The position numbers were made by a program, and so were the translations under genes. The notes beneath the pieces were generated by a model that saw only the letters and a list, made by a program, of their open reading frames with translations, made no database searches and was not told where the DNA came from. 19,303 nucleotides of DNA from a virus: the UHGV virus genome UHGV-0121367, one strand, 5' to 3'. This document shows positions 3,230 to 19,000 of the stretch, one piece after another; within the stretch, counting starts at the first letter, position 1, and the number at the start of each line of letters is the position of its first letter.

Positions 3230-3583
3230 ATGGCTGATTTCGATAATCTCTTTGACGAGGCCATGTCGCGAGCTGATAGCGCTATCCGTGGTGTGATGGG
3301 CACAGAGGCAAAGGTGATGTCAGGCGCTTTGTCAGGTGCCACCCTGGTCGGTGTATTCGATGATCCAGAAAATATCGGATATGCCGGTGCCGGGATTCGT
3401 GTTGAAGGAACCAGCCCGACCCTGTTTGTGGAAACCGCCACTGTCAGGCAGCTGCAGCGTATGGACACGCTGACGATTAACGGTCGGCAATTCTGGGTTG
3501 AACGTATTGGCCCGGATGACTGTGGCTCCTGTCATATCTGTCTGGGTAACGGCTCTCCACCTGCATCTTCGCGTCGCCGTTAA
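3230..3583 (+). CDS. FII: Head completion / head-tail joining protein FII
   Basis: 117-aa ORF with a GAAGGGGG RBS. The N-terminus MADFDNLFDEA and C-terminal ...PPASSRRR are collinear with lambda gpFII. Confidence 0.93.
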   Translation: MADFDNLFDEAMSRADSAIRGVMGTEAKVMSGALSGATLVGVFDDPENIGYAGAGIRVEGTSPTLFVETATVRQLQRMDTLTINGRQFWVERIGPDDCGSCHICLGNGSPPASSRRR

Positions 3584-3592
3584 GGAGCGCAT

Positions 3593-4147
3593 ATGTCCAT
3601 AAAAGGCCTTGAACAGGCCATAGAAAACCTTAACAGCATCAGCAAAACGGCTGTTCCGCGGGCATCGGCGCAGGCCGTTAACCGCGTGGCAAACCGGGCC
3701 GTCAGCCGCAGCGTGGCAGTCGTATCAAAAGATACGCGCGTACCGCGAAAACTGGTAAAGCAACGCGCCAGGGTGAAGCGTGCGACGGTCAATAGACCTC
3801 GTGCACTTATCCGGGTAAACCGGGGAAATTTACCGGCCATTAAACTCGGTACCGCAAGCGTGCGACTTTCCCGCAGAAAACGGGACAAGAAAGGGGCCAA
3901 CAGCGTTCTGCGCATAGGGCCATTTCGTTTTCCGGGCGGCTTTATCCAGCAACTTAAAAATGGTCGCTGGCATGTCATGAGGCGGACTTCAAAACCTCGT
4001 TACCCCATTGAAGTGGTCAGCATCCCGCTGGCAGCTCCATTAACTACGGCATTTAAAGAAGAACTGCCGAAGCTCATGGAGTCAGATATGCCCAAAGAGC
4101 TCCTGGCATCCCTTACCAACCAACTCAGGTTAATTCTGACACGATGA
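3593..4147 (+). CDS. Z: Tail completion protein Z
   Basis: 184-aa ORF with an AAGGAG RBS at 3582-3587, in the position of lambda Z (between FII and U), starting MSIKGLEQAIENL. Its stop overlaps the U start (ATGA at 4144-4147). Confidence 0.88.
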   Translation: MSIKGLEQAIENLNSISKTAVPRASAQAVNRVANRAVSRSVAVVSKDTRVPRKLVKQRARVKRATVNRPRALIRVNRGNLPAIKLGTASVRLSRRKRDKKGANSVLRIGPFRFPGGFIQQLKNGRWHVMRRTSKPRYPIEVVSIPLAAPLTTAFKEELPKLMESDMPKELLASLTNQLRLILTR

Positions 4148-4542
4148 AACACAGCGATATTCGCAAGGTGATTATTGACGCGCTGGAAAGCGCGATTGGT
4201 ACTGATGTCATTTATTTTGACGGCAGACCTGCAGTGCTCGAAGAGGGTGATTTTCCCGCTGTTGCCGTCTACCTGACAGATGCGGAATACACAGGGGAAG
4301 AACTGGACGCCGATAGCTGGCAGGCCATTCTGCATATCGAAGTCTTTCTTGAGGCTCAGGTACCTGATTCTGATCTGGATGACTGGATGGAGACGAGAGT
4401 GTATCCGGTTCTCGCAGAGGTTCCGGGGCTTGAATCTCTTATCACCACAATGGTTCAGCAGGGCTATGACTACCAGCGCGATGACGATATGGCGCTGTGG
4501 AGTTCTGCCGACCTGAAATATTCCATTACTTACGACATGTGA
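4144..4542 (+). CDS. U: Tail tube terminator protein U
   Basis: 132-aa ORF, strongly similar to lambda gpU (FDGRPAV...[10 protein letters not shown]...AEYTGEELD...LHIEVFL), translationally coupled to Z. Confidence 0.94.
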
Positions 4543-4549
4543 GGACCCT

Positions 4550-5287
4550 ATGGCCACACCAAACCCGCTGGCACCAACAAAAGGTGCTGGTACCACCCTC
4601 TGGGTTTACACCGGAACTGGTGATCCATACGCCAATCCGCTTTCAGACGTTGACTGGCTGCGCCTGGCAAAGATTAAAGACCTGCAGCCCGGAGAACTGA
4701 CAGCTGAATCGGAAGATGACACCTACATCGATGATGAGAATGCCGACTGGACATCAACGATGCAGGGGCAGAAATCAGCCGGTGAAACAAACCTGACGCT
4801 CGCATGGATGCCGGAGGATTCCGGTCAGCAGGACCTGGTGAACTGGTTCGATGAAGGCACCGTGAAGGGGTATAAAATCAAATATCCGAATGGTGTTGTC
4901 GATGTCTTTAAGGGCTGGGTGAGCAGTCTCGGCAAGACCATCTCGTCTAAAGAGGTCATGACCCGCACGGCAAAAATCACCAACAATGGCAAACCATCGC
5001 TGGCCGAAGACAGTGGTACCGCGCCGATTGCCGTTACGGGGATCAGCCTGGATAAATCCACGGCGGCTGTGGCTGTCGCGGCCACGACGCAACTGGTTGT
5101 TTCTGTCCTGCCAGCAAGTGCTTCAGATAAGTCTTTCCGCGTAGCCAGTTCTGATCCGTCAAAAGCAACGGTCACCGTCAGCGGCAATACCCTGACTGTT
5201 ACCGGCGTGGCGGCAGGCACCGTCGAGATCATCGTAATGAGCAATGACGGTAACTTTGTGGCGATCTGCAAAGTCACTGTTTCCTGA
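4550..5287 (+). CDS. V: Major tail tube protein V with a C-terminal Ig-like (Big_2-type) domain
   Basis: 245-aa ORF. The N-terminal 150 aa are near-collinear with lambda gpV ([10 protein letters not shown]...[12 protein letters not shown]...). The C-terminal about 90 aa has the typical Ig-like pattern (...SFRVASSD...[22 protein letters not shown]...). Confidence 0.95.
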
Positions 5288-5291
5288 TAAC

Positions 5292-5307
5292 CGGGGCGAA
5301 AGCCCCG
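5292..5307 (+). other. GNRA-loop hairpin (cggggc-gaaa-gccccg) just after the V stop
   Basis: Perfect 6-bp GC stem with a GAAA tetraloop, 5 nt after the V double stop (tga taa), with no T-run. Candidate mRNA 3' stabiliser or processing signal. Confidence 0.45.
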
Positions 5308-5323
5308 TTCCCCCGGAGTAATT

Positions 5324-5746
5324 ATGTTTCTAAAGAGCGAGCTGCTTGAAAGTAACGGCAGCAGCGTCACATTGTTCCAGCTGTCGGCGCTGCAGCGTAT
5401 TGAATACCTCGAATACCTGAAACAACTTGAGGCGGTTGAAGCTGGTGATTTTCAGGCTGCCATTACCCTTACCGTGAAGAGTGGAGCATATCTGGTGGCA
5501 ATGTCACTCTGGCATGGCCACGCGCTTAAAGGATCGCAGGGAGAAAACGCGGCGGCGGAAGTGGAGCAGATTCAGGATGAGGTCATGCAGACATGGCCGA
5601 CCGAACTTGTTGCCGAAGCCGAATATAAGGTGAAACTCCTGTCCGGGATGATTGCGCCGGTCACTGATGACCAGGCTGAGCCCGGTGAAGAACGTAATGA
5701 ACCCGATGAACCTGTTACTGCGGAAAAGCCCTCGCCAGTGAGCTGA
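5324..5746 (+). CDS. G: Tail assembly chaperone G
   Basis: 140-aa ORF with a GGAG RBS, similar to lambda gpG (MFLKSE...LSALQRIE...LVAMSLWH...). Confidence 0.9.
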   Translation: MFLKSELLESNGSSVTLFQLSALQRIEYLEYLKQLEAVEAGDFQAAITLTVKSGAYLVAMSLWHGHALKGSQGENAAAEVEQIQDEVMQTWPTELVAEAEYKVKLLSGMIAPVTDDQAEPGEERNEPDEPVTAEKPSPVS

Positions 5747-6075
5747 AGTTTGCCATGAAACTGGCGCGTGAGTTCGGTCGCCCGGACTGGCGTGCCATGC
5801 TTGCTGGCATGTCCTCAACGGAATACGGCGACTGGAAAATCTTCTACCAGGACAATTACTTTCATGATGCGCAGCTGGACGCACATTTCTCCGGCTTGCT
5901 CTACACCATCTCAACCCTGTTTTTTGCTGATCCGGAATTAACACCGGACAGTTTCAGCATCCTTTCCCCTGTATCGGAAAGCATCGACGTTGATGAGCCG
6001 GATGACGATACGCTGATGGCGAAGGCTGCAGGTATTTCAGGAGGCGTGCGCTATGGCCCAGACGGCAGTGGGTGA
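5710..6075 (+). CDS. T: T frame of the G-T tail assembly chaperone, expressed as a G-T fusion by programmed -1 ribosomal frameshift (no independent start expected)
   Basis: The -1 frame relative to G is open from 5710 (after TGA at 5707-5709) to the stop at 6073-6075. Its translation (...REFGRPDWRAMLAGMSSTEYGDWKIFYQDNYF...AAGISGGVRYGPDG) resembles lambda gpT. It overlaps G by 36 nt, which contain a lambda-like slippery heptamer. It ends overlapping the H start, as in lambda. Confidence 0.8.
   Translation, partial: TCYCGKALASELKFAMKLAREFGRPDWRAMLAGMSSTEYGDWKIFYQDNYFHDAQLDAHFSGLLYTISTLFFADPELTPDSFSILSPVSESIDVDEPDDDTLMAKAAGISGGVRYGPDGSG
5722..5728 (+). other. Candidate -1 frameshift slippery heptamer G.GAA.AAG (lambda has G.GGA.AAG)
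   Basis: This is the only heptamer of this kind inside the 36-nt G/T overlap. The A-site AAG to AAA slip is classical. The P-site GAA to GGA re-pairing needs a G:U pair at the middle position. Confidence 0.5.
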
Positions 6076-8569
6076 TCTGGTCGTTAACTTTGACGTTAAC
6101 TCGACGAAATTTAACGAGCAGCTTAACTACGTCAAAAAAGAATTAAAGCAGACTGGCAGCGCGGCGAACGACGAAGCGCTACGGATCCAGCAGTCCTTTA
6201 GCCGCCAGGAGAACGCCGCGCGCAAGGCGGGTATTTCAATAGGCCAGTATAACGCAGCAATGCGTATGCTTCCGGCGCAGTTTACCGATATAGCTACGCA
6301 GCTAGCGGGCGGGCAGAACCCATGGCTGATTCTGCTTCAGCAGGGCGGTCAGGTTAAGGACTCCTTTGGCGGGATAATACCAACATTCAGGGCCTTACTG
6401 GGTACGATCTCACCGTTGATGGTCGGCATCGGTGCGCTGTCCGCCGCAACGGGTGCGCTGTTCTATGCCTGGTACCAGGGCTCTTCCACTCTGTCTGACT
6501 TCAACAAAACGCTGGTACTGTCGGGGAACACAGCCGGACTGACCGCTGACCGCATGCTGGCACTGGCGCGTAACGGACAGGCAGCGGGGCTGACCTTCAA
6601 CCAGACCAGTGAAGCGCTGACCGAACTTATCAACGCGGGTGTGCGTGCTGGCTCGCGCTTTGATGACATGAGCCAGGCGGTGGCGCGGTTTACCGATGCC
6701 TCCGGCGTGCCGGTGGAAAAGGTCGCAGCAGCCTATGGCAAGCTCGCAACTGACCCGACATCTGGCCTGATCGCGATGGCCCAGCAGTTCCATAACGTTA
6801 CCGCTGAACAGATTGCCCATGTGGCGCAGCTGCAGCGTGCCGGTGATGAGGCTGGCGCACTGCAGGCGGCTAACGAGGCTGCTACAGCCGGATTCAACGA
6901 TCAGACCAAAGCCATCCGCGACAATATGGGGACGATTGAATCTTCAGCGGACTCCCTGAAGCGCGCCTTCAAGTCGATGTGGGATGCAGCCCTCGATATT
7001 GGCCGACCTGACACCGCGCAGGAGATGGTGGCAAAAGCCGAAGCCGCGTTCAAAAAAGCCGATGAAATCTGGAACCTGCGTAAAGGTGACCGATATGTCA
7101 ATGATGAGGCCCGCACCCGATTCTGGAATGACCGCGAAACGGCCAGGCTTGCGCTGGATATGGCGCAGCAGCAGGCGGGAATTGCCAGGGCGAACGAAGA
7201 GAATGCATCGCGCGAAGCGGCTGCGGAATCGGATCGCCAGAAGTATGCTGCGCAGGCACAGGCAAACTATGCCAAAATGCAGACGGCACTGGAGAAATAC
7301 ACGGCCAGGCAGAGCGAGCTCAACAAGGCGCTGAAAGAGGGGCGGATCCTCCAGGCTGACTACAACATCAACCTGGCTGCCGCGAAAAAAGAGTACGAAG
7401 ACACCCTTAAAAAGCCGAAGAAGACCCCGGCAATCAGAACCCCCGCAGGTGCCCGTGCCACCGATACGGCCAGTGCCCAGACGCTGGAGCTACAGACACA
7501 GCTGCGCACCCTGCAGGAGCATAAGAGCATCAATGACACCATCAGCCAGCAGCGTCAGGAGCTGTGGCGTCAGCAGTCCCGCTTTACGGTTCTGGAAGAG
7601 GCCGCGAAGACCCGAACGCTTTCTGCTGAGGAAAAATCCCTGCTGGCCAGTAAAAGTGAGGTGCTTTCCCGTGCGGAGCTGAATGCGAAGCTTGGCGATA
7701 AGATAGTGGCGCAGGAGCGGCTTAACCGCCTGCAGGATACGTCCCAAAAATACGTCACGCAGATCGGCGAGAAAACCCGAGCCCTTGCGGAAAGTGCTGG
7801 TATGAGCAGTCGTGCAGCACAACGTCGCAATGAAGAGGCCCAGCTTCTTCAGGGCTGGAAAAATGGTGGTGGTTCGGAGAACGATGCTGGTTATCAGAAT
7901 GAGCTGAAGGCGCTGAAGGCGTATTACGCCGAGCAGGATAAGCTTCGGGACGACTGGCAGTCCGGGGCAAAATCCGCTTGGGCAGATTATGTTGATTCTG
8001 CTTCTGATGCTTATGGCCAGATGAAGTCGTTTGCCACCAGTACGTTTGATGGAATCGGGCAAAATATGGCTGACATGCTGACACGCGGAAAGGCTGACTG
8101 GGCTGACTTCACCCGCTCCACGCTCTCCATGCTGACACAGATCCTGCTGAAACAGGCGATGGTAGGCTTAGTGGATTCAGCATCAACCGCGCTGGGATTT
8201 GCAGGTGGCGGTTATACCGGTTCAGGCGGGAAATATGAGCCAGCAGGTGTCGTTCACCGTGGTGAATTTGTTTTCACCAAAGAGGCTACCAGCCGGATCG
8301 GCGTCGGCAACCTTTACCGGATGATGAAAGGGTACGCCACAGGAGGGCTTGTCGGGGGCAGTGGCACAGGTCCCGCTGCAGCACCTTTCGGGGTGAGCGT
8401 GTACGCGCCTGTGACCGTCGAGAATGCCTCCGGTGGCGCACAGCAGCAAAATGACGGAGACAGGCTGGGTAAGGCGTATCAGCAGGTGATTAACAAATCT
8501 GTCAACGATGGTATCGCCAGGGCAATCCAGCCCGGTGGGCTTATCTGGAATGCGACCAATCGCAGGTAA
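6053..8569 (+). CDS. H: Tail tape measure protein H
   Basis: 838-aa ORF (lambda gpH is in the same size class) with an AGGAGG RBS, placed after G-T. It has long Ala/Gln/Arg/Lys-rich predicted helical regions and a Gly-rich C-terminal part. Confidence 0.93.
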   Translation: MAQTAVGDLVVNFDVNSTKFNEQLNYVKKELKQTGSAANDEALRIQQSFSRQENAARKAGISIGQYNAAMRMLPAQFTDIATQLAGGQNPWLILLQQGGQVKDSFGGIIPTFRALLGTISPLMVGIGALSAATGALFYAWYQGSSTLSDFNKTLVLSGNTAGLTADRMLALARNGQAAGLTFNQTSEALTELINAGVRAGSRFDDMSQAVARFTDASGVPVEKVAAAYGKLATDPTSGLIAMAQQFHNVTAEQIAHVAQLQRAGDEAGALQAANEAATAGFNDQTKAIRDNMGTIESSADSLKRAFKSMWDAALDIGRPDTAQEMVAKAEAAFKKADEIWNLRKGDRYVNDEARTRFWNDRETARLALDMAQQQAGIARANEENASREAAAESDRQKYAAQAQANYAKMQTALEKYTARQSELNKALKEGRILQADYNINLAAAKKEYEDTLKKPKKTPAIRTPAGARATDTASAQTLELQTQLRTLQEHKSINDTISQQRQELWRQQSRFTVLEEAAKTRTLSAEEKSLLASKSEVLSRAELNAKLGDKIVAQERLNRLQDTSQKYVTQIGEKTRALAESAGMSSRAAQRRNEEAQLLQGWKNGGGSENDAGYQNELKALKAYYAEQDKLRDDWQSGAKSAWADYVDSASDAYGQMKSFATSTFDGIGQNMADMLTRGKADWADFTRSTLSMLTQILLKQAMVGLVDSASTALGFAGGGYTGSGGKYEPAGVVHRGEFVFTKEATSRIGVGNLYRMMKGYATGGLVGGSGTGPAAAPFGVSVYAPVTVENASGGAQQQNDGDRLGKAYQQVINKSVNDGIARAIQPGGLIWNATNRR

Positions 8570-10473: not shown

Positions 10474-10869
10474 GTGAAAAAAATATTGTTCTCTGGTCTT
10501 GTGGTGCTTGCCACCGCTGGATGTGCTGATAATAGGCCAATGCCGGTATTAGATACTAAGCCTGTCACATGTTCATCAGAGGCTGAATGTAGTTATCTTT
10601 GGTCGAAGGTTCCTCAGCATTTGGAGTTTGCAACAAAAATGAGAGTAGAATCAGCTAACGATACATTTATAACAACATTCCCACCTATTGATACAAGGCA
10701 ACTTGCAGGACGGGCATCTAAGGTTAAACAGTCCGGCGATACGGCAATAAATGCTGAATTCCAATGCCATCGACATTATGGGCAGAAGGATTGTGAAAGG
10801 GCGGTAATTAATGCTACAAATTTCTTTAATCAAGCAATGAGCATTGAAAAGAAACATTTTAATAAATAA
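10474..10869 (+). CDS. Moron-encoded probable outer-membrane lipoprotein of unknown function (131 aa, GTG start)
   Basis: N-terminus MKKILFSGLVVLATAGC has a signal peptide and lipobox-like TAGC. Residue +2 is Ala, so outer-membrane sorting is expected by the E. coli rule. Four further Cys. The gene is clearly AT-richer than its flanks (by eye) and is followed by a strong intrinsic terminator. It is inserted between K and I, which are adjacent in lambda. Confidence 0.7.
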   Translation: MKKILFSGLVVLATAGCADNRPMPVLDTKPVTCSSEAECSYLWSKVPQHLEFATKMRVESANDTFITTFPPIDTRQLAGRASKVKQSGDTAINAEFQCHRHYGQKDCERAVINATNFFNQAMSIEKKHFNK

Positions 10870-11520: not shown

Positions 11521-11540
11521 GCTAAGTTAAGGAGATGTGT

Positions 11541-11690
11541 ATGTCTTTTGAGTCACGAGTAGAAAAAACTGAAAATGAAACATCTGAAGTTAATGAAACG
11601 GTCCCGCATGAGACCGTAGAGTACGATGCTTCAATGACATTAGGCGTCAATAAGCTTCATATTTTTGACGATGTCTTGAATTTGTGGTGA
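11541..11690 (+). CDS. Small acidic hypothetical protein (49 aa) in the AT-rich I-J island
   Basis: ATG at 11541 with AAGGAG at 11528-11533 (7-nt spacer). Translation MSFESRVEKTENETSEVNETVPHETVEYDASMTLGVNKLHIFDDVLNLW is about 30 percent Asp/Glu. Too short for the ORF track. Its 3' end overlaps the convergent minus-strand ORF by 51 nt. Confidence 0.35.
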   Translation: MSFESRVEKTENETSEVNETVPHETVEYDASMTLGVNKLHIFDDVLNLW

Positions 11691-11855
11691 GTTTGTCTTT
11701 GATAGGATTTCAATAACTTGTTGCCTTGTATCTACTGGCAATGCTGCTGTTAATACCATTGTAACTTGTCTTAGAGCCACAATTTCTAAAGCGATTTCTC
11801 TAGGAATATTTTCGTCAAGAGTAAATCTAAAATCCACGAACTTTTCTTCGATCAT
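11640..11855 (-). CDS. Hypothetical 71-aa protein encoded antisense to the late operon in the I-J island
   Basis: ORF track 11640..11855 (-). ATG preceded by GGAG with a 7-nt spacer on the minus strand. AT-rich codon usage unlike the flanking tail genes. No signal peptide and no family I can recognise. Confidence 0.45.
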   Translation of the reverse strand: MIEEKFVDFRFTLDENIPREIALEIVALRQVTMVLTAALPVDTRQQVIEILSKTNSPQIQDIVKNMKLIDA

Positions 11856-11986
11856 CTTATTACTCCATTTTAACCGGGTACTTCAGCCATCCCTCGGTCA
11901 GTTAACGCCAGAGGCCTACCACTGGCGGGCTGAGCTTACACATTAACCAGGGATTCCTGTTACCAACAGCCTGATATTTAAACAGT

Positions 11987-12010
11987 AGCCGCCTTCGGGT
12001 GGCTTTTTTT
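11987..12010 (+). terminator. Rho-independent terminator on + strand immediately upstream of J
   Basis: Stem agccgcc (11987-11993), loop ttcg, stem ggtggct (11998-12004, one G:U pair), then a T-run 12004-12010. The J start codon is at 12022. Confidence 0.7.
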
Positions 12011-12021
12011 ATGGACGCGAT

Positions 12022-15000
12022 ATGGCTACAGAGAAAGTATTAAAGGGGCGCAAAGGCGGCAAATCCAGTTCACGAACTCCTACCGAACAGCCTGATGATC
12101 TGCAATCTGTAGCGAAGGCAAAAATCCTCGTTGCGCTTGGGGAAGGGGAGTTCGCAGGGCAGCTAACCGGCAAAGATATCTACCTGGACGGAACGGCGCT
12201 GGAGAATGCCGACGGTTCCCAAAACTTCAGCGGCGTGACGTGGGAGTTTCGCGCGGGGACGCAGGCTCAAAAATATATTCAGGGTATTCCCGGTACCGAA
12301 AACGAAATCAGCGTGGGAACTGAGGTATCAAGCGCTACAGCCTGGACGCGCACGTTTACCAATACGCAGCTTTCAGCAGTTCGTCTGCGTCTGAAATGGC
12401 CCTCGCTTTTCAAACAGGAAGACGACGGAGATCTGGTGGGTTACTCGGTCAATTATGCGATTGACCTGCAGACGGACGGCGGCACATGGCAGACGGTACT
12501 CAATACCAGCGTGACCGGCAAAACGACGTCTGGTTATGAGCGCAGCCACCGTATCGATTTACCGCAAGCTGGCAGCACCTGGACAATACGTCTGCGTAAG
12601 ATTACCTCTGATGCCAACAGCGCGAAGATCGGCGACACGATGACGCTGCAGAGCTTCACCGAGGTGATTGACGCCAAGTTACGATATCCAAACACAGCGC
12701 TACTCTACATCGAATTCGATTCAAGTCAGTTTAACGGCTCTATCCCGCAGATCTCCTGCGAGCCCCGCGGCCGTGTTATCCGCGTTCCAGATACCTACGA
12801 CCCTGAAACCCGCACTTATAGCGGTACATGGACCGGTGCGTTTAAGTGGGCATGGACGGATAACCCTGCGTGGATTTTTTACGATCTGGTTGTTTCTGAC
12901 CGGTTCGGCCTCGGGCACCGTTTGACCGCTGCGAATATTGATAAATGGACGCTTTATCAGGTTGCCCAGTATTGTGATCAGATGGTACCAGACGGCAAAG
13001 GGGGCAACGGTACCGAACCACGTTATACCTGCAACGTGTACATCCAGGACCGAAACGACGCTTATACAGTCCTGCGTGATTTTGCGGCCATATTCCGTGG
13101 CATGACGTACTGGGGAGGCGATCAGATCGTTGCTCTGGCCGATATGCCCCGAGATGTTGATTACAGCTACACGCGCGCCAACGTTGTTGGCGGTCGCTTC
13201 ACCTATTCAAGCAGCACCACGAAAACCCGCTACACCACAGCGCTGGTTTCATGGTCAGACCCGGGTAACGCTTATGCCGACGCGATGGAGCCGGTATTTG
13301 AGCAGGCGCTGGTAGCGCGATACGGCTTCAATCAGCTGGAAATGACAGCCATCGGCTGCACCAGGCAGTCAGAAGCGAACCGAAAGGGGCGCTGGGGCAT
13401 TCTCACCAACAACAAGGATCGCGTTGTTTCGTTTGATGTCGGGCTGGACGGAAACATTCCGCAGCCTGGCTACATCATCGCCGTGGAAGACGAGCTGCTT
13501 TCCGGAAAGGTTATGGGCGGCCGCATCAGCGCCGTTAACGGTCGCGTTATCAAACTTGACCGCGTAGCTGATGCAGCACCAGGTGATCGCCTTATTCTCA
13601 ACCTGCCTTCCGGAGCGTCGCAGAGCAGGACCATTCAGGCCGTGAACGGGGAATCAGTCACAGTCACCACGGCATACAGTGAGACGCCACAGGCCGAAGC
13701 TGTTTGGGTGGTTGAATCTGACGAGCTTTACGCGCAGCAATATCGCGTTATCAGCGTTACGGATAATAATGACGGAACGTATTCGATTGCTGGCGCTTTG
13801 CACGATCCGGATAAATATGCGCGTATCGATACCGGTGCCATTATCGACCAGCGGCCAATAAGTGTAATTCCGCCCGGTAATCAGTCCCCGCCAGCTAATA
13901 TCGCGATCAGTTCGTTTTCTGTCGTTCAGCAGAATATCAGCGTTGAGACCATGCGCGTCAGCTGGGACCAGGCGAAAAATGCTATCGCGTATGAGGCACA
14001 GTGGCGTCGCAATGACGGGAACTGGGTGAATGTGCCGCGCAGCTCCACCACGTCATTCGATGTTCCGGGGATTTATGCAGGACGCTACCTGGTTCGCGTG
14101 CGTGCCATCAATGCCGCCGAAATTTCATCTGGGTGGGGCTATTCAGAAGAGAAAACGTTGACGGGTAAAGTGGGAAACCCACCGAAGCCGGTTGGCTTCA
14201 TCGCTTCTGAAAACGTGGTATTCGGTATCGAGCTGAACTGGGGATTCCCGGCGAATACCGAAGACACGCTGAAGACGGAAATTCAGTATAGCCTGACCGG
14301 TACCGAGGACGATGCAATGCTGCTGGCCGATGTGCCTTACCCGCAGCGCAAATATCAGCAGATGGGCCTTAAGGCTGGGCAGATTTTCTGGTACCGCGCG
14401 CAACTTGTTGACCGGACCGGTAACGAATCGGGGTATACCGACTGGGTGCGCGGGCAGGCGAGCACCGATGTTTCAGAAATTACGGATGCAATATTCAAAG
14501 AGATTCAGGAAACAGAGGTTTTCAAAAACCTGATCGCCACTGTAGATGAGGATACCAAAAATATTGCCGAACTGACTGATGCGGTCCGGGAAAATGCCGA
14601 CGCGCTGGCAGCTGCAATTATTGACGGGAAACAAACTGCAGAGGATTTGAAATCCAGTACTGAAAATCTGGCAGCAGCGATTCGTGAAAATGCAGATAGT
14701 CTTGCCGCGGCGGTTTCATCTAACAAACAGACCGCTGAAGCTATTATTGCCAATTCTCTCGCGATTACTGATGTCGTATTGCGTCAGACCGCCCAAAACG
14801 GCGCTAATACGGCGCAATTCGAGCAACTACGGGAAGTTGTAGCGACAGAAACTGAAGCTCGCGTGACCGATGTTACCCGTCTCGAAGCTAAGACGAAGGA
14901 TAACGCGGCGGGCATCACTGAGGTTCGACAAGCACTTGCTGATGAAACTCAAGCCCGCGCAACTGCTGTCGATCAGCTTACTGCTGCTACGGACGCGGCG

Positions 15001-16479
15001 GGTAAGGTTGGCGCACAGAACAGCGCGGATATCACATCACTTACCCAAGTTGTTACAGATAGCACCTCTGCGGCCGCTTCACGATTTGATGAGCTTAGCG
15101 CTGCTACTGCCAGCGCTGCGGGCGGCATTCAGAGTAATGCCATCGCTCTGATTAACAACACGTTAGCTCAGGTTAGCCAGCGCAACACCATGACGGTTCA
15201 GTACCTGGACAACAAGGCCGGGATCGAGCGCACACAGGAAGCCATAGCCAACGAGACCGAAGCCCGTGTTGCTGATGTACTGCGCCTTGAAGCTACTACA
15301 GAGCACAACGCAGCTGATATCATTGAAGTGCGTCAAGCTATGTCTGACGAGTCTCAAGCAGTCGCGACGCGTCTTAATGAACTCAATGCTGCTACTAAGA
15401 CTGCCGACTCTAAAGCGGACGCGGCGGGTAAGGTTGGCGCACAAAATGCAGCGAAAATCACAGCGCTTGAGCAGGTTGTGACAGATACAGAATCAGCTAC
15501 AGCGCTGCGACTCGACGAGCTTTCTGCTGCTACTAAAGCTGCCAGCGATAAAGCAGATGAGGCGGAACAAGCCAGTACTCGCAATGCCGCAGAAATCAGC
15601 GAGTTGGATCAAGTGGTCACGGATTTGGACAGCGCCACAGCGTTACGTTTTGACGAAATCTCAGCAGAAATCGCAGATCAGAGCAGTAATGTGGGCGTCA
15701 TTAAAGGAGGCATTCAGAATAACGCGATTGCAGTAATTCAGCAGACGTTAGCGCAGGTGAATCAGTCGCAGCGAATGAGTGTGCAGTACGGCGACAATAA
15801 AGCAGGGATCGAACGTGTCGATAACGTGATGGCTGATGCAAGCCTGGCTGTGGCTGAGTCACTCAAAACGCTGGATTCAAGTGCAGGAGGTGGTACTGCA
15901 AATACGACTGATTTTGCAAAAACTCTTGCGGATTTCACGCAGGCGTCAGCAACGCGGATTAACTCGCTGACAGTGTCAGTTAATGGGCAGACGACAGTAA
16001 TTGAACAGAACGCACGGGCGGTTGCAGATATCAGCGGAAATCTGAATGCGATGTACAGTATTAAAGTCGCTATCGACTCGAACGGACGGCAATACGCTGC
16101 CGGAATGGGTATCGGAGTCGAAAATACGCCAGCAGGTATGCAGTCGCAGGTGCTGTTCCTGGCTAACCGCTTTGCTGTTATGACTCAGGCCGGTGGTGCG
16201 GTCACGCTGCCATTCGTTATTCAGAATGGCCAGGCCATTATCAGGGATACAGTCATTGGCGACGGGACCATAAGCAATGCAAAAATTGGCAATTACATCC
16301 AGTCGAACAATTATGTTGCCGGCTCTGTTGGCTGGAAACTGGATAAGTCCGGGACGTTTGAGAACTACGGTTCGACAGCTGGGGAGGGAGCCATGAAGCA
16401 GACCAACCAGACAATCAGCGTCAAGGATGGCAACAACGTTCTGAGAGTGCAGGTTGGCCGATTAACGGGGGTGTTCTGA
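12022..16479 (+). CDS. J: Tail tip attachment / host specificity protein J (central tail fibre), enlarged relative to lambda J
   Basis: 1485-aa ORF. The N-terminal two thirds are collinear with lambda gpJ motifs (...YPNTALL...QISCEPRGRVIRVPDTYDPETRTYSGTWTG...YCDQMVPDGKGG...). A long Ala-rich repeat region follows, and the C-terminal region is unlike the lambda LamB-binding end. Confidence 0.95.
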   Translation: MATEKVLKGRKGGKSSSRTPTEQPDDLQSVAKAKILVALGEGEFAGQLTGKDIYLDGTALENADGSQNFSGVTWEFRAGTQAQKYIQGIPGTENEISVGTEVSSATAWTRTFTNTQLSAVRLRLKWPSLFKQEDDGDLVGYSVNYAIDLQTDGGTWQTVLNTSVTGKTTSGYERSHRIDLPQAGSTWTIRLRKITSDANSAKIGDTMTLQSFTEVIDAKLRYPNTALLYIEFDSSQFNGSIPQISCEPRGRVIRVPDTYDPETRTYSGTWTGAFKWAWTDNPAWIFYDLVVSDRFGLGHRLTAANIDKWTLYQVAQYCDQMVPDGKGGNGTEPRYTCNVYIQDRNDAYTVLRDFAAIFRGMTYWGGDQIVALADMPRDVDYSYTRANVVGGRFTYSSSTTKTRYTTALVSWSDPGNAYADAMEPVFEQALVARYGFNQLEMTAIGCTRQSEANRKGRWGILTNNKDRVVSFDVGLDGNIPQPGYIIAVEDELLSGKVMGGRISAVNGRVIKLDRVADAAPGDRLILNLPSGASQSRTIQAVNGESVTVTTAYSETPQAEAVWVVESDELYAQQYRVISVTDNNDGTYSIAGALHDPDKYARIDTGAIIDQRPISVIPPGNQSPPANIAISSFSVVQQNISVETMRVSWDQAKNAIAYEAQWRRNDGNWVNVPRSSTTSFDVPGIYAGRYLVRVRAINAAEISSGWGYSEEKTLTGKVGNPPKPVGFIASENVVFGIELNWGFPANTEDTLKTEIQYSLTGTEDDAMLLADVPYPQRKYQQMGLKAGQIFWYRAQLVDRTGNESGYTDWVRGQASTDVSEITDAIFKEIQETEVFKNLIATVDEDTKNIAELTDAVRENADALAAAIIDGKQTAEDLKSSTENLAAAIRENADSLAAAVSSNKQTAEAIIANSLAITDVVLRQTAQNGANTAQFEQLREVVATETEARVTDVTRLEAKTKDNAAGITEVRQALADETQARATAVDQLTAATDAAGKVGAQNSADITSLTQVVTDSTSAAASRFDELSAATASAAGGIQSNAIALINNTLAQVSQRNTMTVQYLDNKAGIERTQEAIANETEARVADVLRLEATTEHNAADIIEVRQAMSDESQAVATRLNELNAATKTADSKADAAGKVGAQNAAKITALEQVVTDTESATALRLDELSAATKAASDKADEAEQASTRNAAEISELDQVVTDLDSATALRFDEISAEIADQSSNVGVIKGGIQNNAIAVIQQTLAQVNQSQRMSVQYGDNKAGIERVDNVMADASLAVAESLKTLDSSAGGGTANTTDFAKTLADFTQASATRINSLTVSVNGQTTVIEQNARAVADISGNLNAMYSIKVAIDSNGRQYAAGMGIGVENTPAGMQSQVLFLANRFAVMTQAGGAVTLPFVIQNGQAIIRDTVIGDGTISNAKIGNYIQSNNYVAGSVGWKLDKSGTFENYGSTAGEGAMKQTNQTISVKDGNNVLRVQVGRLTGVF
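14584..14745 (+). repeat. Short 96-bp (32-aa) direct repeat in J encoding RENAD(A/S)LAAA...KQTAE
   Basis: cgggaaaatgccgacgcgctggcagctgca at about 14587 and cgtgaaaatgcagatagtcttgccgcggcg at about 14683. Confidence 0.6.
14849..15830 (+). repeat. Diverged in-frame tandem repeats inside J (unit about 405-426 bp, two to three copies)
   Basis: Near-identical 23-mer gcggcgggtaaggttggcgcaca at 14995 and 15421 (period 426 bp). Related blocks gaaactgaagctcgcgtgaccgatgtta (14849) and gagaccgaagcccgtgttgctgatgta (15253). A third partial copy around 15560-15830 repeats the ...IQ(S/N)NAIA(L/V)I..TLAQV.Q...M.VQY.DNKAGIER... module. Confidence 0.8.
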
Positions 16480-16480
16480 T

Positions 16481-16783
16481 ATGGCTTATGGAATACAGAC
16501 CTGGGATGCTTCGGGAAACCCCAACAACTACGGAATCAAGCCCGTTTCCGTTGTTGGACGTATACAACTTGCCGCCGGACAAAACTCCGGCAGCTGGTCT
16601 TTCACTGTACCCTCAGGAATGAAGGTCGGTTTTGCGCTCTCACTTGATGAAGGAGGTAACAGCGTAGGGAGGAGCATTGTCGCGTCAGGGAACACAATAA
16701 CCGTAACCGCAGCCTCTTCTGTGGGCCTGGGTAATTACCCGGCCTCTAAATGTGAGGTGGTCGTTTTCATGGAGAAAGCATAA
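16481..16783 (+). CDS. Hypothetical protein (100 aa) translationally coupled to J, likely tail-associated
   Basis: The start is 2 nt after the J stop. Codon usage is like the flanking structural genes. It shares the motifs G-x-x-x-W-D-A-S-G and S-G-S-W with the downstream ORF. Confidence 0.7.
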   Translation: MAYGIQTWDASGNPNNYGIKPVSVVGRIQLAAGQNSGSWSFTVPSGMKVGFALSLDEGGNSVGRSIVASGNTITVTAASSVGLGNYPASKCEVVVFMEKA

Positions 16784-17457
16784 TGGCCGAATTTGGCGCG
16801 ATGATATTAATGGATAACGGGAATCCCTTTGTAACGCCACAATCAACGCCTTTCTGTCTTTACGGGAAGTATACCTTCAATTCATCCGCGAATGGCAGTT
16901 CTCAGCAGGTTGCTCAAAATATCGCTTTAAACGCTGATTACCCAGTGATGGTTTTTATCAAAACCACCAATACAGCACAGCCCACTCCGGTTATGTCTTA
17001 CAGGAACGGCGGTAATGTGTATGTTGCTGGTGTTAATCCCTACAACCAAAGTTTCACTTTAACGGCGTACGTTTTTGCCATATTCCCGCAGATATTACCG
17101 AAATGGGGTTTGGCAATATGGGATGCGAGCGGAAAGCTTGTGTTAACTAATGAGTCCCGTGTGCTATCAGACCTGCAGACGGTTGGCACGCCTGGTGCAA
17201 ACGGCGGGATAAATATTGACCAGACGCTGAGCGGGTCATGGGCCGTTGCACCTGCTCAGTTGGGTCAGACCATCATTGTGAATAATTCAACCCAGCCTCC
17301 GACTATCTACACGATAAATGCTTATTCTTCATGCAGGTTTGACGGGGCCAATACGAGGATAAACGCAGGGGGGACCTCCACTGGGGCAGGTTCACCTGGA
17401 GGGGGAACGAATACTGGCATTTCATTAACCGCCATAAATACAGCGGCCTATGATTGA
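16783..17457 (+). CDS. Hypothetical protein (224 aa) with Gly-rich C-terminus, apparently built from two copies of the module in the upstream ORF
   Basis: Start overlaps the upstream stop (TAATG). The N-terminus MAEFGAMILMDNGNP parallels MAYGIQTWDASGNP of the preceding ORF. The internal segment KWGLAIWDASGKLV...LSGSWAV repeats the same motif. Confidence 0.72.
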   Translation: MAEFGAMILMDNGNPFVTPQSTPFCLYGKYTFNSSANGSSQQVAQNIALNADYPVMVFIKTTNTAQPTPVMSYRNGGNVYVAGVNPYNQSFTLTAYVFAIFPQILPKWGLAIWDASGKLVLTNESRVLSDLQTVGTPGANGGINIDQTLSGSWAVAPAQLGQTIIVNNSTQPPTIYTINAYSSCRFDGANTRINAGGTSTGAGSPGGGTNTGISLTAINTAAYD

Positions 17458-17507
17458 TTGATCGTTTTTAGCGATCAATAACATAATATTGATCTATCCA
17501 ATCAATT
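17457..17507. promoter_or_regulatory. Operator-like cluster of ATTGAT inverted repeats with three GATC sites, upstream of the small lipoprotein gene
   Basis: attgatcg (17457-17464) and cgatcaat (17472-17479) are perfect 8-bp inverted repeats with a 7-nt spacer. A second pair is attgat (17488-17493) and atcaat (17501-17506). GATC occurs at 17460, 17473 and 17491. The region is AT-rich and intergenic. Confidence 0.45.
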
Positions 17508-17568
17508 ATACCCACCAGAATTGTATTGGTATCGTCTAAGATACTGAATTCCTCTGGATACTATCAAA

Positions 17569-17802
17569 ATGAGAAAACTGATTATCTGCATGGCAGGCGC
17601 TGTCATGCTTACAGGATGCGCTGGCGTAATTGAGAAACAGGAACCAGTTTGCAGCGGCACTGCAATCGTTGGCGGTCAGGAAACTACGGTTCAGATTTAC
17701 GGTGTGCGTAAACAAAACAACCAGACGCAGTACCGGGCTGGATATCCTTTCAGCTGGCGCTGGGTAAGTGCGAATACATTTACCGAAACAACCTGCAAAT
17801 AA
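17569..17802 (+). CDS. Small outer-membrane lipoprotein (77 aa); candidate Cor/Llp-like superinfection exclusion protein
   Basis: N-terminus MRKLIICMAGAVMLTGC has a canonical lipobox LTGC with Ala at +2. Two further Cys (C28, C76). Size and position (downstream of J, before the tail fibre) match Cor-type exclusion lipoproteins of lambdoid phages. The functional call is inference. Confidence 0.6.
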   Translation: MRKLIICMAGAVMLTGCAGVIEKQEPVCSGTAIVGGQETTVQIYGVRKQNNQTQYRAGYPFSWRWVSANTFTETTCK

Positions 17803-17823
17803 CCCACTACGCTTAAACATAAA

Positions 17824-17846
17824 CCTCGCCCCGGCGGGTTTTTTAT
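17824..17846 (+). terminator. Probable intrinsic terminator after the lipoprotein gene
   Basis: GC-rich imperfect hairpin (cctcgcc / ggcggg) followed by ttttttatt at 17839-17847. Confidence 0.5.
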
Positions 17847-17863
17847 TATCTGGAGAAAATAAA

Positions 17864-19000
17864 ATGATCTATACAACCGGCACTATCGCTGTCAGCGGTA
17901 ATACTCTGACCGGCACCGGAACTAATTTTACTGCTGCGGGTTCATTAATTCGGAACGGCTGCACTGTTATTGCACTGACAAATCCGGCACAGGTATTTCA
18001 GATTACTGCAATTAACAGCGCTACGAGTCTCACTGTAACGCCTGCTGCCAGCCCAGCAATTCCAGCCGGTACGAAATATTCAATTCTGCTGAGTGATAGT
18101 CTGAGCGTTGATGGGCTGGCGCAAGATATTGCCGAGACGTTCACTCTGTACCAGCGCAATATGAGCGGATTCGCTGACGTAATGAACGGCACAGGGGACG
18201 TGACAATTACGATTAACGGTGTGGCTGTGACCGTTCCTGGTCAGAAATCGCTAGCGAAGAAAGGGGCAAATAAGGACATTACGAGCCTGACCGGGTTAAC
18301 TACAGCGCTTAGTATCGCTCAGGGCGGCACCGGTGGCAAAACAGCAGCAGAGGCCCGCACATACCTCGGTTTAGGAAGTAGTGCGACAAAGGATGTCGGA
18401 ACTGCGGCAGGGAATGTTATGCAGGTGGGAGCTTTTGGGGTTGGTGCTGCTCTCGAAAATAAGCCCACAGATGCCAGTTCATCCTTCATCAGTGATGCTG
18501 CTGGCAATACTCTGTGGGCTCCTGCGAATGGCTGTGGGTTTCAGAGTTCCTACACCGAGCAGCGAATTGCGCAGCTGTGGATTACTTACGGTGGTGCGAT
18601 GTTCAGCCGTTTTCTAACAACCACTGATGACCCTCAAACACCAAAATCATCAGTGCCGTGGGCGCAGATGCAGTCTGCAGGTACATCGGACATAAATTTC
18701 AAGAAGGTTACTGGAGAACTTAATTTAGAAGTGTCTCTGGCCAACATCGTGGCAATGGATTTTAAGACCTTCTACTACCTTGCTGATGAAGAGAAAACGA
18801 TACGCCGAGGTGTTGTTGCTCAGGAACTGGAAAAGATAGATCCGCAATATGTTCACTCGGCTGAGGAGTCGGGGAAAATGACCCTAGACCTCAATCCTCT
18901 GGTGCTCGATGCGCTGGCGGCAATCAAAGAGCTGGCAATCCGCGTCAGCGCATTAGAGGGCGACGCTAAATCTCCGGCTTCTGGCTCATCCGCTGGTTAA
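17864..19000 (+). CDS. Tail fibre protein with a C-terminal intramolecular chaperone (Peptidase S74-like auto-cleaving) domain
   Basis: ATG at 17864 preceded by GGAG at 17852-17855. The upstream ATG at 17768 would overlap the lipoprotein gene and terminator. The C-terminal approximately 100 aa carry S74-type hallmarks: GTSDINFKK (Ser-Asp...Lys at the predicted cleavage site, Ser about residue 275), RRGVVAQELEKIDPQYV, and a terminal helical ...LDALAAIKELAIRVSALE. Confidence 0.82.
   Translation: MIYTTGTIAVSGNTLTGTGTNFTAAGSLIRNGCTVIALTNPAQVFQITAINSATSLTVTPAASPAIPAGTKYSILLSDSLSVDGLAQDIAETFTLYQRNMSGFADVMNGTGDVTITINGVAVTVPGQKSLAKKGANKDITSLTGLTTALSIAQGGTGGKTAAEARTYLGLGSSATKDVGTAAGNVMQVGAFGVGAALENKPTDASSSFISDAAGNTLWAPANGCGFQSSYTEQRIAQLWITYGGAMFSRFLTTTDDPQTPKSSVPWAQMQSAGTSDINFKKVTGELNLEVSLANIVAMDFKTFYYLADEEKTIRRGVVAQELEKIDPQYVHSAEESGKMTLDLNPLVLDALAAIKELAIRVSALEGDAKSPASGSSAG

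Follow-up and report, generated by a model that had tools for sequence, protein, structure and literature searches.

The DNA analysed here, UHGV virus genome UHGV-0121367 (19,303 nucleotides; the whole stretch is termed the window), corresponds to the late part of a lambdoid Escherichia coli prophage, where the head and tail genes lie. Gene J (12022-16479) encodes a tip attachment or central tail fibre protein of 1485 amino acids, as given by the open reading frame (ORF) list and translation and by Pfam, NCBIfam and PDB matches. Its distal half appears to carry a coiled-coil shaft that has been expanded to three modules. In the ORF order J comes after the genes for the tape measure, M, L, K and I, an arrangement also annotated for HK140, HK97, HK022 and the P27 prophage of E. 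coli; J and all features of J and of the genes downstream of it given below are on the plus strand. Lambda J has 1132 amino acids, and J is therefore 353 codons longer, which agrees with the ∼350 codons estimated in an earlier sequence-only reading of this DNA. Other J proteins have 1151 (HK140), 1183 (HK022), 1192 (phi80), 1172 (T1 gp33) and 1296 (HK97) amino acids. Pfam places FNIII-A_GpJ at amino acids 92-218 (E = 1e-50) and Phage_Tail_Tip (PF09327) at amino acids 1327-1462 (E = 8e-48). The NCBIfam model lambda_TipJ scores 518 bits, under its exact-name cut-off of 1950, and PDB sequence matches are to the F2-pyocin fibre, T1 gp33 and lambda J.

The conserved hub and FNIII part of J comprises amino acids 1-838 (12022-14535). 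It is homologous to lambda J over lambda amino acids 4-855 (blastp, E = 4e-121; PDB entry 8iyk, E = 1e-129), and nucleotides 1-2515 of the gene are 91-94% identical to the J genes of HK140, HK97 and HK022. At the other end, nucleotides 3868-4458 are 83% identical to HK140 J. The 1352 nucleotides at 14537-15888 replace a 347-nucleotide segment of HK140 J and display no nucleotide match to HK140, HK97 or HK022 J. The extra length had earlier been assigned to 14584-15830, which does lie inside this unmatched region but is slightly narrow, as the repeats span 14536-16056.

The 3′ 2080 nucleotides of J are found as a single piece, 100% identical, in 14 of 5426 complete E. coli genomes, and no length variants of the 3′ region occur among those 14. 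No phage record covers 80% or more of the J gene. Window positions 13788-18287 are 99-100% identical to the prophage of E. coli P27_L1_05.20 (NZ_CP085069), which like CRE444 is a carrier, with five mismatches in 4.5 kb; this stretch comprises J from amino acid ∼590, both small ORFs downstream of J, cor and the 5′ half of the side-fibre gene. Outside it, identity to the P27 prophage falls to ∼80% in the first 1.8 kb of J and to 78% in the I gene. The whole host-recognition cassette has recently been exchanged between these two prophages. Since J is intact, and 100% identical from amino acid ∼590 onward, in two prophages whose 5′ J sequences have diverged, J circulates as a working cassette.

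It is scarcely credible that the long J represents a decaying prophage gene or an assembly artefact. Many database homologs are indeed labelled 'partial' and the gene is hard to assemble from short reads, but the ORF is uninterrupted over 1485 codons, its distal part is identical in 14 complete genomes, it is present in two diverged prophage backgrounds, and the coiled-coil phase described below is kept through every repeat. Very many J homologs in public protein sets (P0001-P0341) are 'partial' or lie on contigs of 1-5 kb. Short-read assemblies probably often break in or near J, and shaft length is probably under-sampled in databases.

The repeat region comprises amino acids 839-1345 (14536-16056). 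Amino acids 839-1330 consist of 20% Ala and 11% Thr, with no Pro and no Trp. Repeats were sought by a scripted BLOSUM62 self dot-plot of J with 30-amino-acid windows. Diagonals are found at offsets of 142, 135, 46, 195, 188, 32, 96, 39 and 103 residues with scores of 65-103 (77-103 for the first six); the shuffle maxima are 46 for the whole protein and 53 for amino acids 820-1345 alone. A proximal helical segment (amino acids 839-930; 14536-14811), predicted by AlphaFold2 (AF2) to be helical over amino acids 832-925, carries 32-amino-acid repeats, with amino acids 839-887 matching 871-919 at a score of 77. This is the shorter repeat that had been noticed from the sequence, and the segment may be a counterpart of the F7 pyocin fibre 'spine' (PMC12874032).

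Three modules make up the rest of the shaft. M1 (amino acids 900-1030; 14719-15111) consists of a head segment and three hairpin units, and M2 (amino acids 1031-1225; 15112-15696), the extra module, of a head and four hairpin units. M3 (amino acids 1226-1345; 15697-16056) is common to the shafts of HK140, HK022, phi80 and F-pyocins. The heads are matched by a hidden Markov model at amino acids 902-992 (E = 2.5e-39), 1034-1128 (E = 1.3e-47) and 1229-1323. By blastp with composition correction M1 and M2 are 53% identical (E = 9e-39), M2 and M3 47% (E = 6e-21) and M1 and M3 31% (E = 7e-8); a self-blastp of J returns the identity match only. The greater length of M2 results from a tandem duplication of 46 amino acids (1144-1189 and 1190-1235), visible in the dot-plot as a hairpin repeat of amino acids 1094-1182 against 1140-1228 with a score of 98. 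The location of the extra length in helix-prone, Ala/Thr/Gln-rich, diverged tandem modules is thus borne out by the self dot-plot and by the significant module matches. The first modules of Enterobacter phage LAU1 and of a locus from IMG/VR (L012) are each 82% identical to M1, and M3 is 58% identical to the HK140 module and 79% to M3 of L012. For M2, no relative above 48-54% identity was found in GTDB representative genomes or IMG/VR, and M2 is absent from all 120 of the 120 closest homologs.

Recent duplication of the modules is ruled out by a protein identity of only 47-53%, and from this divergence the duplications are old. In DNA the module copies are ∼67-80% identical, with values of 53-80%, about 70%, outside one exact direct repeat of 28 nucleotides, the longest exact repeat in the region. 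Its copies lie at 14990-15017 and, 426 nucleotides downstream and in frame, at 15416-15443, and encode DAAGKVGAQ. Tandem Repeats Finder (TRF) detects no tandem repeats in the DNA; the DNA copies are too diverged, and the repeats are therefore visible at the protein level only. The presence of the 28-nucleotide repeat within modules otherwise ∼70% identical in DNA may reflect local gene conversion or strong constraint, and recombination between its copies would remove 142 amino acids in frame.

The repeats had also been regarded as substrates for recombination that could change fibre length, a proposal that finds little to sustain it. Frequent recombination varying fibre length within populations is very improbable: apart from the single 28-nucleotide match the copies share only 53-80% of their DNA sequence with no tandem array, all 14 complete E. 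coli genomes are identical over 2080 nucleotides, and the duplications are old by module divergence (47-53% at the amino acid level). The short in-frame repeat could permit a rare RecA-dependent or slippage-type deletion of 142 amino acids, and related lineages do differ in module number.

The strongly hydrophobic residues of the shaft display a single period of 3.55 that stays in phase over 507 residues. The periodicity power is 4.86, compared with a shuffle 99th percentile of ∼1.5, and no peak at this period is present in the N-terminal 800 amino acids of J. A period of 3.53-3.68 is also found in eight relatives, the J proteins of HK140, HK022, phi80, T1, LAU1, mEp013, a Klebsiella phage and L012. 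Divided by 3.556, the repeat offsets give 9.00 (offset 32), 10.97 (39), 12.94 (46), 27.00 (96), 28.97 (103), 37.96 (135), 39.93 (142) and 52.87 (188); offsets of 92 (25.87), 195 (54.84) and 330 (92.80) fit less closely. As most offsets are near-integer multiples of 3.556, the duplications largely kept the coiled-coil phase.

AF2 was run on the monomer with alignments of 62 and 120 sequences, the latter including T1-like proteins. Helices are predicted at amino acids 832-925, 930-1031, 1038-1134 and 1143-1255, with breaks only at sites that contain Gly: NGAN (926-929), GGIQSN (1032-1037), AGKVGAQN (1135-1142), YGDNKAGIERV (1256-1266) and SAGGGTA (1287-1293). In the second run the helix at amino acids 1141-1221 has a predicted local distance difference test score (pLDDT) of 80-89, and the M3 helix one of only 40-58. 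Homology to a pyocin fibre points in the same direction. Amino acids 1183-1449 of J match residues 918-1189 of the F2-pyocin fibre (E = 9e-23), and residues ∼907-1085 of that fibre have been solved as a trimeric coiled coil (PMC13455828; bioRxiv 10.64898/2026.02.24.707460). The longer coiled-coil shaft that had been suggested is, on the 3.55 periodicity, the AF2 helices and the F2-pyocin homology, the best reading, and the expanded region is well supported as the alpha-helical coiled-coil shaft of a central fibre of the phi80/T1 class. The coiled coil is most likely trimeric. If collinear, its ∼447 helical residues would form a shaft of ∼65 nm, compared with roughly 25-35 nm in one-module relatives.

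A different arrangement, in which helices of ∼95-113 residues separated by the Gly-containing breaks pack antiparallel in a folded-back bundle, would make the fibre thicker and not longer. AF2 does break the helix at five such sites, and the predicted template modelling score (pTM) of the model is only 0.23. On the other hand, the hydrophobic phase is coherent across all of the breaks, as would be seen if a single parallel coiled coil ran through them; in the homologous F2 and F7 pyocins the shaft forms one extended trimeric coiled coil, in which a kink at Gly is tolerated (PMC13455828); and the C-terminal part of the T1 fibre is modelled by AlphaFold3 (AF3) as an extended fibre of ∼37 nm (PMC11945409). 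The bundle is accordingly judged unlikely.

The shaft is followed by a beta-prism tip domain, PF09327 (amino acids 1327-1462; 16000-16407). AF2 predicts a beta-meander at amino acids 1315-1407 (pLDDT 63-85), for which the best Foldseek match is the lambda central fibre (8xcj_F, E = 1e-7); a Foldseek search of the first AF2 model against PDB, dominated by the long helices, gave nothing meaningful. The protein ends in a C-terminal knob of the T1/phi80/HK022 type (amino acids ∼1425-1485; 16294-16476), modelled with a pLDDT of ∼90. Amino acids 1340-1484 match T1 gp33 1028-1171 with E = 1e-43, and amino acids 1176-1485 are 62% identical to phi80 J 898-1192. The knob is presumed, by analogy, to be a docking site for separately encoded receptor-binding proteins (PMC12874032; PMC8594841; bioRxiv 10.64898/2026.04.02.716166). 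A literature search on PDB entry 23gd ('J-like tail tip protein gp24') returned no relevant paper.

Module number in relatives was counted with a profile built from the three module heads of J. There are three modules in J, two in the 120 best database homologs (mostly Enterobacter prophages, with many 'partial' entries) and in LAU1, one in HK140, HK022, HK97 and phi80, and none in lambda. The stretch free of Pro and Trp is 561 amino acids long in J, 227-259 in the one-module lambdoid relatives, 181 in T1 and 70 in lambda. Compared with relatives, the shaft as a whole is not an insertion, as HK140, HK022 and phi80 already carry one module. The expanded module of the sequence-only reading is therefore present in three copies, but the shaft is not itself an addition, one module of it being present in every J of the phi80/HK022/HK97/T1 class.

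Among 1.84 billion representative proteins, the module profile detected 121 clusters, many with proteins of 1400-2600 amino acids and up to 13 matched stretches. J of the Klebsiella Drexlerviridae phage vB_Ko_K29PH164C1 has 2229 amino acids and a stretch of 952 amino acids without Pro or Trp. The IMG/VR contig L012 (IMGVR_UViG_3300031110_000274) encodes at 3250-7608 a J-like ORF of ∼1453 amino acids with three modules. Its middle module is nearer to first modules (57-64%) than to M2 of J (54%), and the third module may have arisen independently in the two lineages. In T1 gp33 (L008), amino acids ∼915-1000 display a nearly exact tandem repeat, LTDIREVIATETEALSREIDQLKAQIGDDIQAS, in two full copies and partial ones; from the near identity of these copies, unit duplication is ongoing in this fibre family. 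Three-module and far longer shafts thus already occur elsewhere, and J belongs to a fibre family already known (phi80/HK022/T1 type), of which it is a variant in length. Its predicted shaft is the longest among the E. coli temperate lambdoid phages compared and is ordinary in the wider family. The J fibre is probably two to three times longer than those of its relatives.

Two small ORFs follow J. The first (16481-16783) encodes 100 amino acids and is a homolog of phi80 gp22, N15 gp22 and T1 orf32 (phrog_557, E = 3e-36), a candidate fibre-tip or receptor-binding accessory protein. It is 99% identical to the HK140 protein and 94% to that of HK022, and has the same position in phi80 and T1. The second (16783-17457) encodes 224 amino acids and is a homolog of phi80 gp23, N15 gp23 and T1 orf31 (phrog_425, E = 1e-80), a candidate FhuA-binding protein. 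Its identity is 100% with mEp237, 93% with phi80, 80% with HK022-like phages, 59% with Teewinot and 53% with T1; the two ORFs together are 99-100% identical to those of HK140. The gene cor (17569-17802), for a superinfection-exclusion lipoprotein, comes next; it scores 141 bits with the NCBIfam equivalog lamb_exclu_cor (cut-off 31), belongs to phrog_1119 and is 100% identical to HK140 Cor. The order 100-amino-acid ORF, 224-amino-acid ORF, cor and side fibre is the same in phi80, HK140 and LAU1; in T1 both ORFs are present as well, but cor lies on the other strand. In the phi80 record, the genes are noted as resembling N15 gp22, gp23 and Cor.

HK022 and N15 are FhuA-dependent, infection by T1 and phi80 requires TonB in addition to FhuA, and HK97 is a LamB phage. 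FhuA dependence is also established for T1, phi80 and Teewinot (PMC10373560), and two comparative studies place receptor specificity in this group in the locus that follows gpJ (PMC8594841; bioRxiv 10.64898/2026.04.02.716166). Models of the pyocin counterparts, PyoF11/F12, put them on the fibre end (PMC12874032). The features of the FhuA class are present in the window: a knob of the T1/phi80 type, the two downstream ORFs and an adjacent cor. From the 93% identity of the 224-amino-acid protein to phi80 gp23 and the presence of cor after it, FhuA is predicted as the probable receptor. Lambda J 931-1132, the LamB-binding part, has no match in J by blastp, and from the absence of any match beyond lambda residue 930 the LamB-binding domain is absent from J. 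The C-terminus had been described as non-lambda; this holds for the counterpart of lambda 931-1132 but not for the PF09327 beta-prism tip, which is shared with lambda J 843-930. The different receptor suggested on that ground is likely, the C-terminus not being of the LamB type, but specificity probably lies in the two downstream ORFs and not in J.

The C-terminal domain of J might itself bind the receptor, as the sequence-only reading implied, the downstream ORFs being unrelated morons or membrane proteins. The PHROGs labels of the two ORFs are 'outer membrane protein' and 'membrane associated protein', and k-mers of the GpJ C-terminal tip associate with receptor class (bioRxiv 10.64898/2026.04.02.716166). 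However, the two-ORF locus with cor adjoins J in the FhuA phages T1 and phi80, in HK022-related phages and, per the phi80 annotation, in N15, and the LamB phage HK97 is without the locus and has a C-terminal extension of J instead. Comparative genomics and AF3 models also give the role of receptor-binding protein to the locus (PMC8594841; PMC12874032 for the PyoF11/F12 equivalents). Receptor binding by J itself is for these reasons quite unlikely.

A fold switch of the shaft has to be considered because of work on pyocins. In a preprint by He et al., a coiled coil of 163 residues in the F7 pyocin fibre changes to a beta-prism on cell contact, the tail tip opens and the tape measure is ejected (PMC12874032). 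The strands of the prism each carry SxSxxMxxLxS in strand direction, and similar switches are predicted in 21 of 24 siphophage fibres (PMC12874032). In a 2026 preprint, a coiled-coil-to-beta-prism switch of the central fibre is proposed as the energy supply that takes non-contractile tails from first contact to membrane breach. In the J shaft, eight units of reverse strand, four-residue turn and forward strand fit the motif. They start at amino acids 931, 963, 1002, 1066, 1098, 1144, 1190 and 1261, an example being AKITALEQVVT-DTES-ATALRLDELSA. Shuffled shafts contain 0.17 +/- 0.41 paired units, with a maximum of 3 in 2000. A loose regular expression for single strand motifs is not discriminating (30 observed, 19.8 +/- 4.2 in shuffles), and only the paired arrangement is significant. 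J also displays the other sequence features of such a switch, namely C-terminal homology to F-pyocins (to F2, 25vf), a long helical shaft and a beta-prism seed after the shaft. By analogy, the odds that the shaft is a fold-switch element enlarged to about threefold the published strand number are a little under even.

The reading favoured as a whole, a three-module coiled-coil shaft of a phi80/T1-class fibre with receptor proteins encoded downstream and a possible fold switch, is given a probability of roughly 70%. In fibres of this class (phi80/HK022/N15/T1/F-pyocin), the FNIII domains lead into a helical shaft, which is succeeded by a short beta-prism tip (PF09327) and, last, a small knob. 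Old tandem duplications would have raised the shaft to three modules, with a duplication of the M2 hairpin and extra 32-amino-acid repeats proximally, and the added copies would remain in coiled-coil phase. The 100- and 224-amino-acid proteins would dock on the knob and bind an outer-membrane receptor, predicted to be FhuA, J itself probably not being receptor-binding; cor would exclude phages of the same receptor class. Receptor contact may, by analogy with F7 pyocin, convert a metastable coiled coil to a beta-prism nucleated from the tip, and this conversion would shorten the fibre and open the tail tip. Expansion of the shaft would then add both reach and stroke.

Several points weigh against this reading. 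The eight hairpins are not independent, as they are duplication copies of each other, and the fit to the strand motif is poorer in the head segments (GGIQSNAIALINNTLAQV...). Neither AF2 run (62- or 120-sequence alignment), both of monomers, yields a beta-prism state of the shaft; AF2 having given helix alone, the case for a fold switch rests on the motif and on homology to the pyocin of a preprint. Lambda and T5 are without the same extensive fold switch according to the authors of that work, and the sole experimental case is a pyocin (PMC12874032). The global confidence of the AF2 monomer models is low (pTM 0.23 and 0.35), and collinear and folded-back helices are therefore indistinguishable in them. 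FhuA dependence rests on homology, and direct binding of the 224-amino-acid family to FhuA is not shown in the literature consulted.

The extension might also be a static spacer, a coiled coil that sets only the reach of the tip, for example through O-antigen or capsule, without any fold switch. Helix is the only state in both AF2 runs, the strong and coherent coiled-coil periodicity suits a stable shaft, and the longest shafts are seen in phages of heavily capsulated Klebsiella (J of 2229 amino acids with 952 free of Pro and Trp). The fold-switch motif is, however, matched by the hairpin units in both orientations much more often than by chance; the distal module has its homolog in the F-pyocin shaft, of which the F7 example has been seen in both states (PMC12874032); and the M3 helix is modelled at a pLDDT of only 40-58. 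A purely static spacer is quite possible, although less likely than not.

The favoured reading may be carried further, more tentatively, to a shaft that is a modular extensible spring, in which duplication of units would let phages adjust fibre length and firing stroke; this extension is possible, although less likely than not. If it is true, each unit, a whole multiple of 3.556, lengthens the coiled coil for reach through O-antigen or capsule and adds two beta-prism strands that contribute to stroke and stored energy. J would then collapse from ∼65 nm to less than 10 nm, several times the stroke reported for F7 pyocin.

The side tail fibre gene (17861-19000) is listed as an ORF from a GTG at 17768, the ATG at 17861 (MIYTTG) being a likelier start, and belongs to PHROG tail fibre families. 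Its product has a C-terminal Peptidase_S74 intramolecular chaperone domain (amino acids 307-362), and its N-terminal part is ∼50% identical to HK97 Stf. As these side fibres are short, a J shaft of ∼65 nm would make the central fibre the longer of the two, unlike in Ur-lambda. In the P27 prophage (L010), the side fibre gene is followed at 24741-26063 by a gene in opposite orientation for a 'tail fiber domain-containing protein' and by a recombinase-family gene. This prophage adjoins yciI, tonB and the trp operon, and its layout is reminiscent of phi80, with its pin-type invertible fibre segment and its attachment region.

Upstream of J, positions 11521-12021 between I and J form a low-GC (0.44-0.47) insert. 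It displays a 51-amino-acid ORF on the plus strand (11535-11690), an overlapping 71-amino-acid ORF on the minus strand (11640-11855; phrog_6806, unknown function) and a terminator-like hairpin (11987-12004) with a T-run just before the J start. The insert occupies the position of the HK97 gp22/gp23 and HK022 gp22/srb morons but does not resemble them in sequence, and the P27 prophage lacks it. Between K and I (10474-10869), an ORF of 131 amino acids has a lipoprotein-type signal (MKKILFSGLVVLATAGC) and belongs to phrog_16082 (unknown function). It is moron-like and is likewise missing from the P27 prophage; at the same position, different morons are found in HK140 and HK022. Overlapping minus-strand or other-frame ORFs within J (14143-14403, 14505-14753, 15163-15444 and 14870-15151) have no PHROG match and are taken as by-products of GC-rich Ala codons. 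Rfam detects no RNA family in the window.

J with its one-, two- and many-module relatives offers a natural length series of the proposed switch element, and J and HK140 form a well-matched pair: the downstream locus is 99-100% identical, the tip and knob are 83% identical in nucleotides, and three modules stand against one. With such pairs it could be asked whether reach, stroke or host range depends on the length of the shaft. In annotation, a new receptor-binding domain should not be assumed for a long J merely because its end is unlike that of lambda; the receptor in this class is better predicted from the two small downstream ORFs and cor. Otherwise J is an ordinary product of phage tail-fibre mosaicism.

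Among known systems, J of the temperate, cor-carrying lambdoid phages phi80, HK022, HK140, mEp237 and N15 has the helical module, PF09327 tip and knob in common with the J studied here. The HK140/HK022/phi80-type proteins have 1151-1192 amino acids and one module, whereas three are present here. The closest relatives of the shaft are of the Enterobacter type, LAU1 (1281 amino acids) and a cluster representative (P0121, 1292 amino acids), which have an M1-like module (82%) and an M3-like one; LAU1 has the same downstream locus with cor. These two-module proteins are without M2 and the extra 46-amino-acid hairpin.

The central fibre of F-type pyocins (F2, PDB 25vf; F7, PMC12874032) is homologous to J over its whole length, with E = 0 over amino acids 5-1040. 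In both, a helical shaft leads to a beta-prism tip, small proteins are encoded downstream (modelled on the fibre end in the pyocin) and the SxSxxMxxLxS motif is present. The pyocin shaft has ∼163-180 residues and 5-6 switching strands, compared with ∼480 helical residues in J and 16 or more strands that bear the motif. In pyocins the side fibres attach to the shaft, whereas the side fibre here has a lambda/HK97 Stf-like N-terminus, and the pyocin targets Pseudomonas lipopolysaccharide and not FhuA. T1 gp33 (PDB 9l9p; PMC11945409) resembles J in the knob, in shaft hairpin repeats and in downstream orf32, orf31 and cor. It differs in that its units of 29-33 amino acids are nearly exact copies, and T1 itself, one of the Drexlerviridae, is lytic.

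Lambda J (PDB 8iyk, 8xcj) is 32% identical in hub and FNIII over amino acids 13-861 and 35% in the tip (amino acids 1327-1412 against lambda 845-930). It is essentially without a helical shaft and has its own LamB-binding domain, amino acids 931-1132, absent from J here. HK97 J aligns only to amino acids 1-992 and 1189-1447 and has a C-terminal extension of ∼150 amino acids after the tip; HK97 is without a homolog of the two ORFs or cor, and the J described here is not of the HK97 type. The very long J proteins (K29PH164C1, 2229 amino acids; mEp013, 1504 amino acids; P0123, P0133, P0144) display the same kind of hairpin, with up to 13 profile matches, stretches of 405-952 amino acids free of Pro and Trp and, in K29PH164C1 and mEp013, a period of 3.58-3.60. 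They are ∼27% identical to the shaft here and come from different phage groups, some with different tips. Judged by the features that can be tested in sequence, all of which are present, J is a member of the TipJ family and of its phi80/HK022/N15/T1 subclass, with separate putative receptor-binding proteins and cor.

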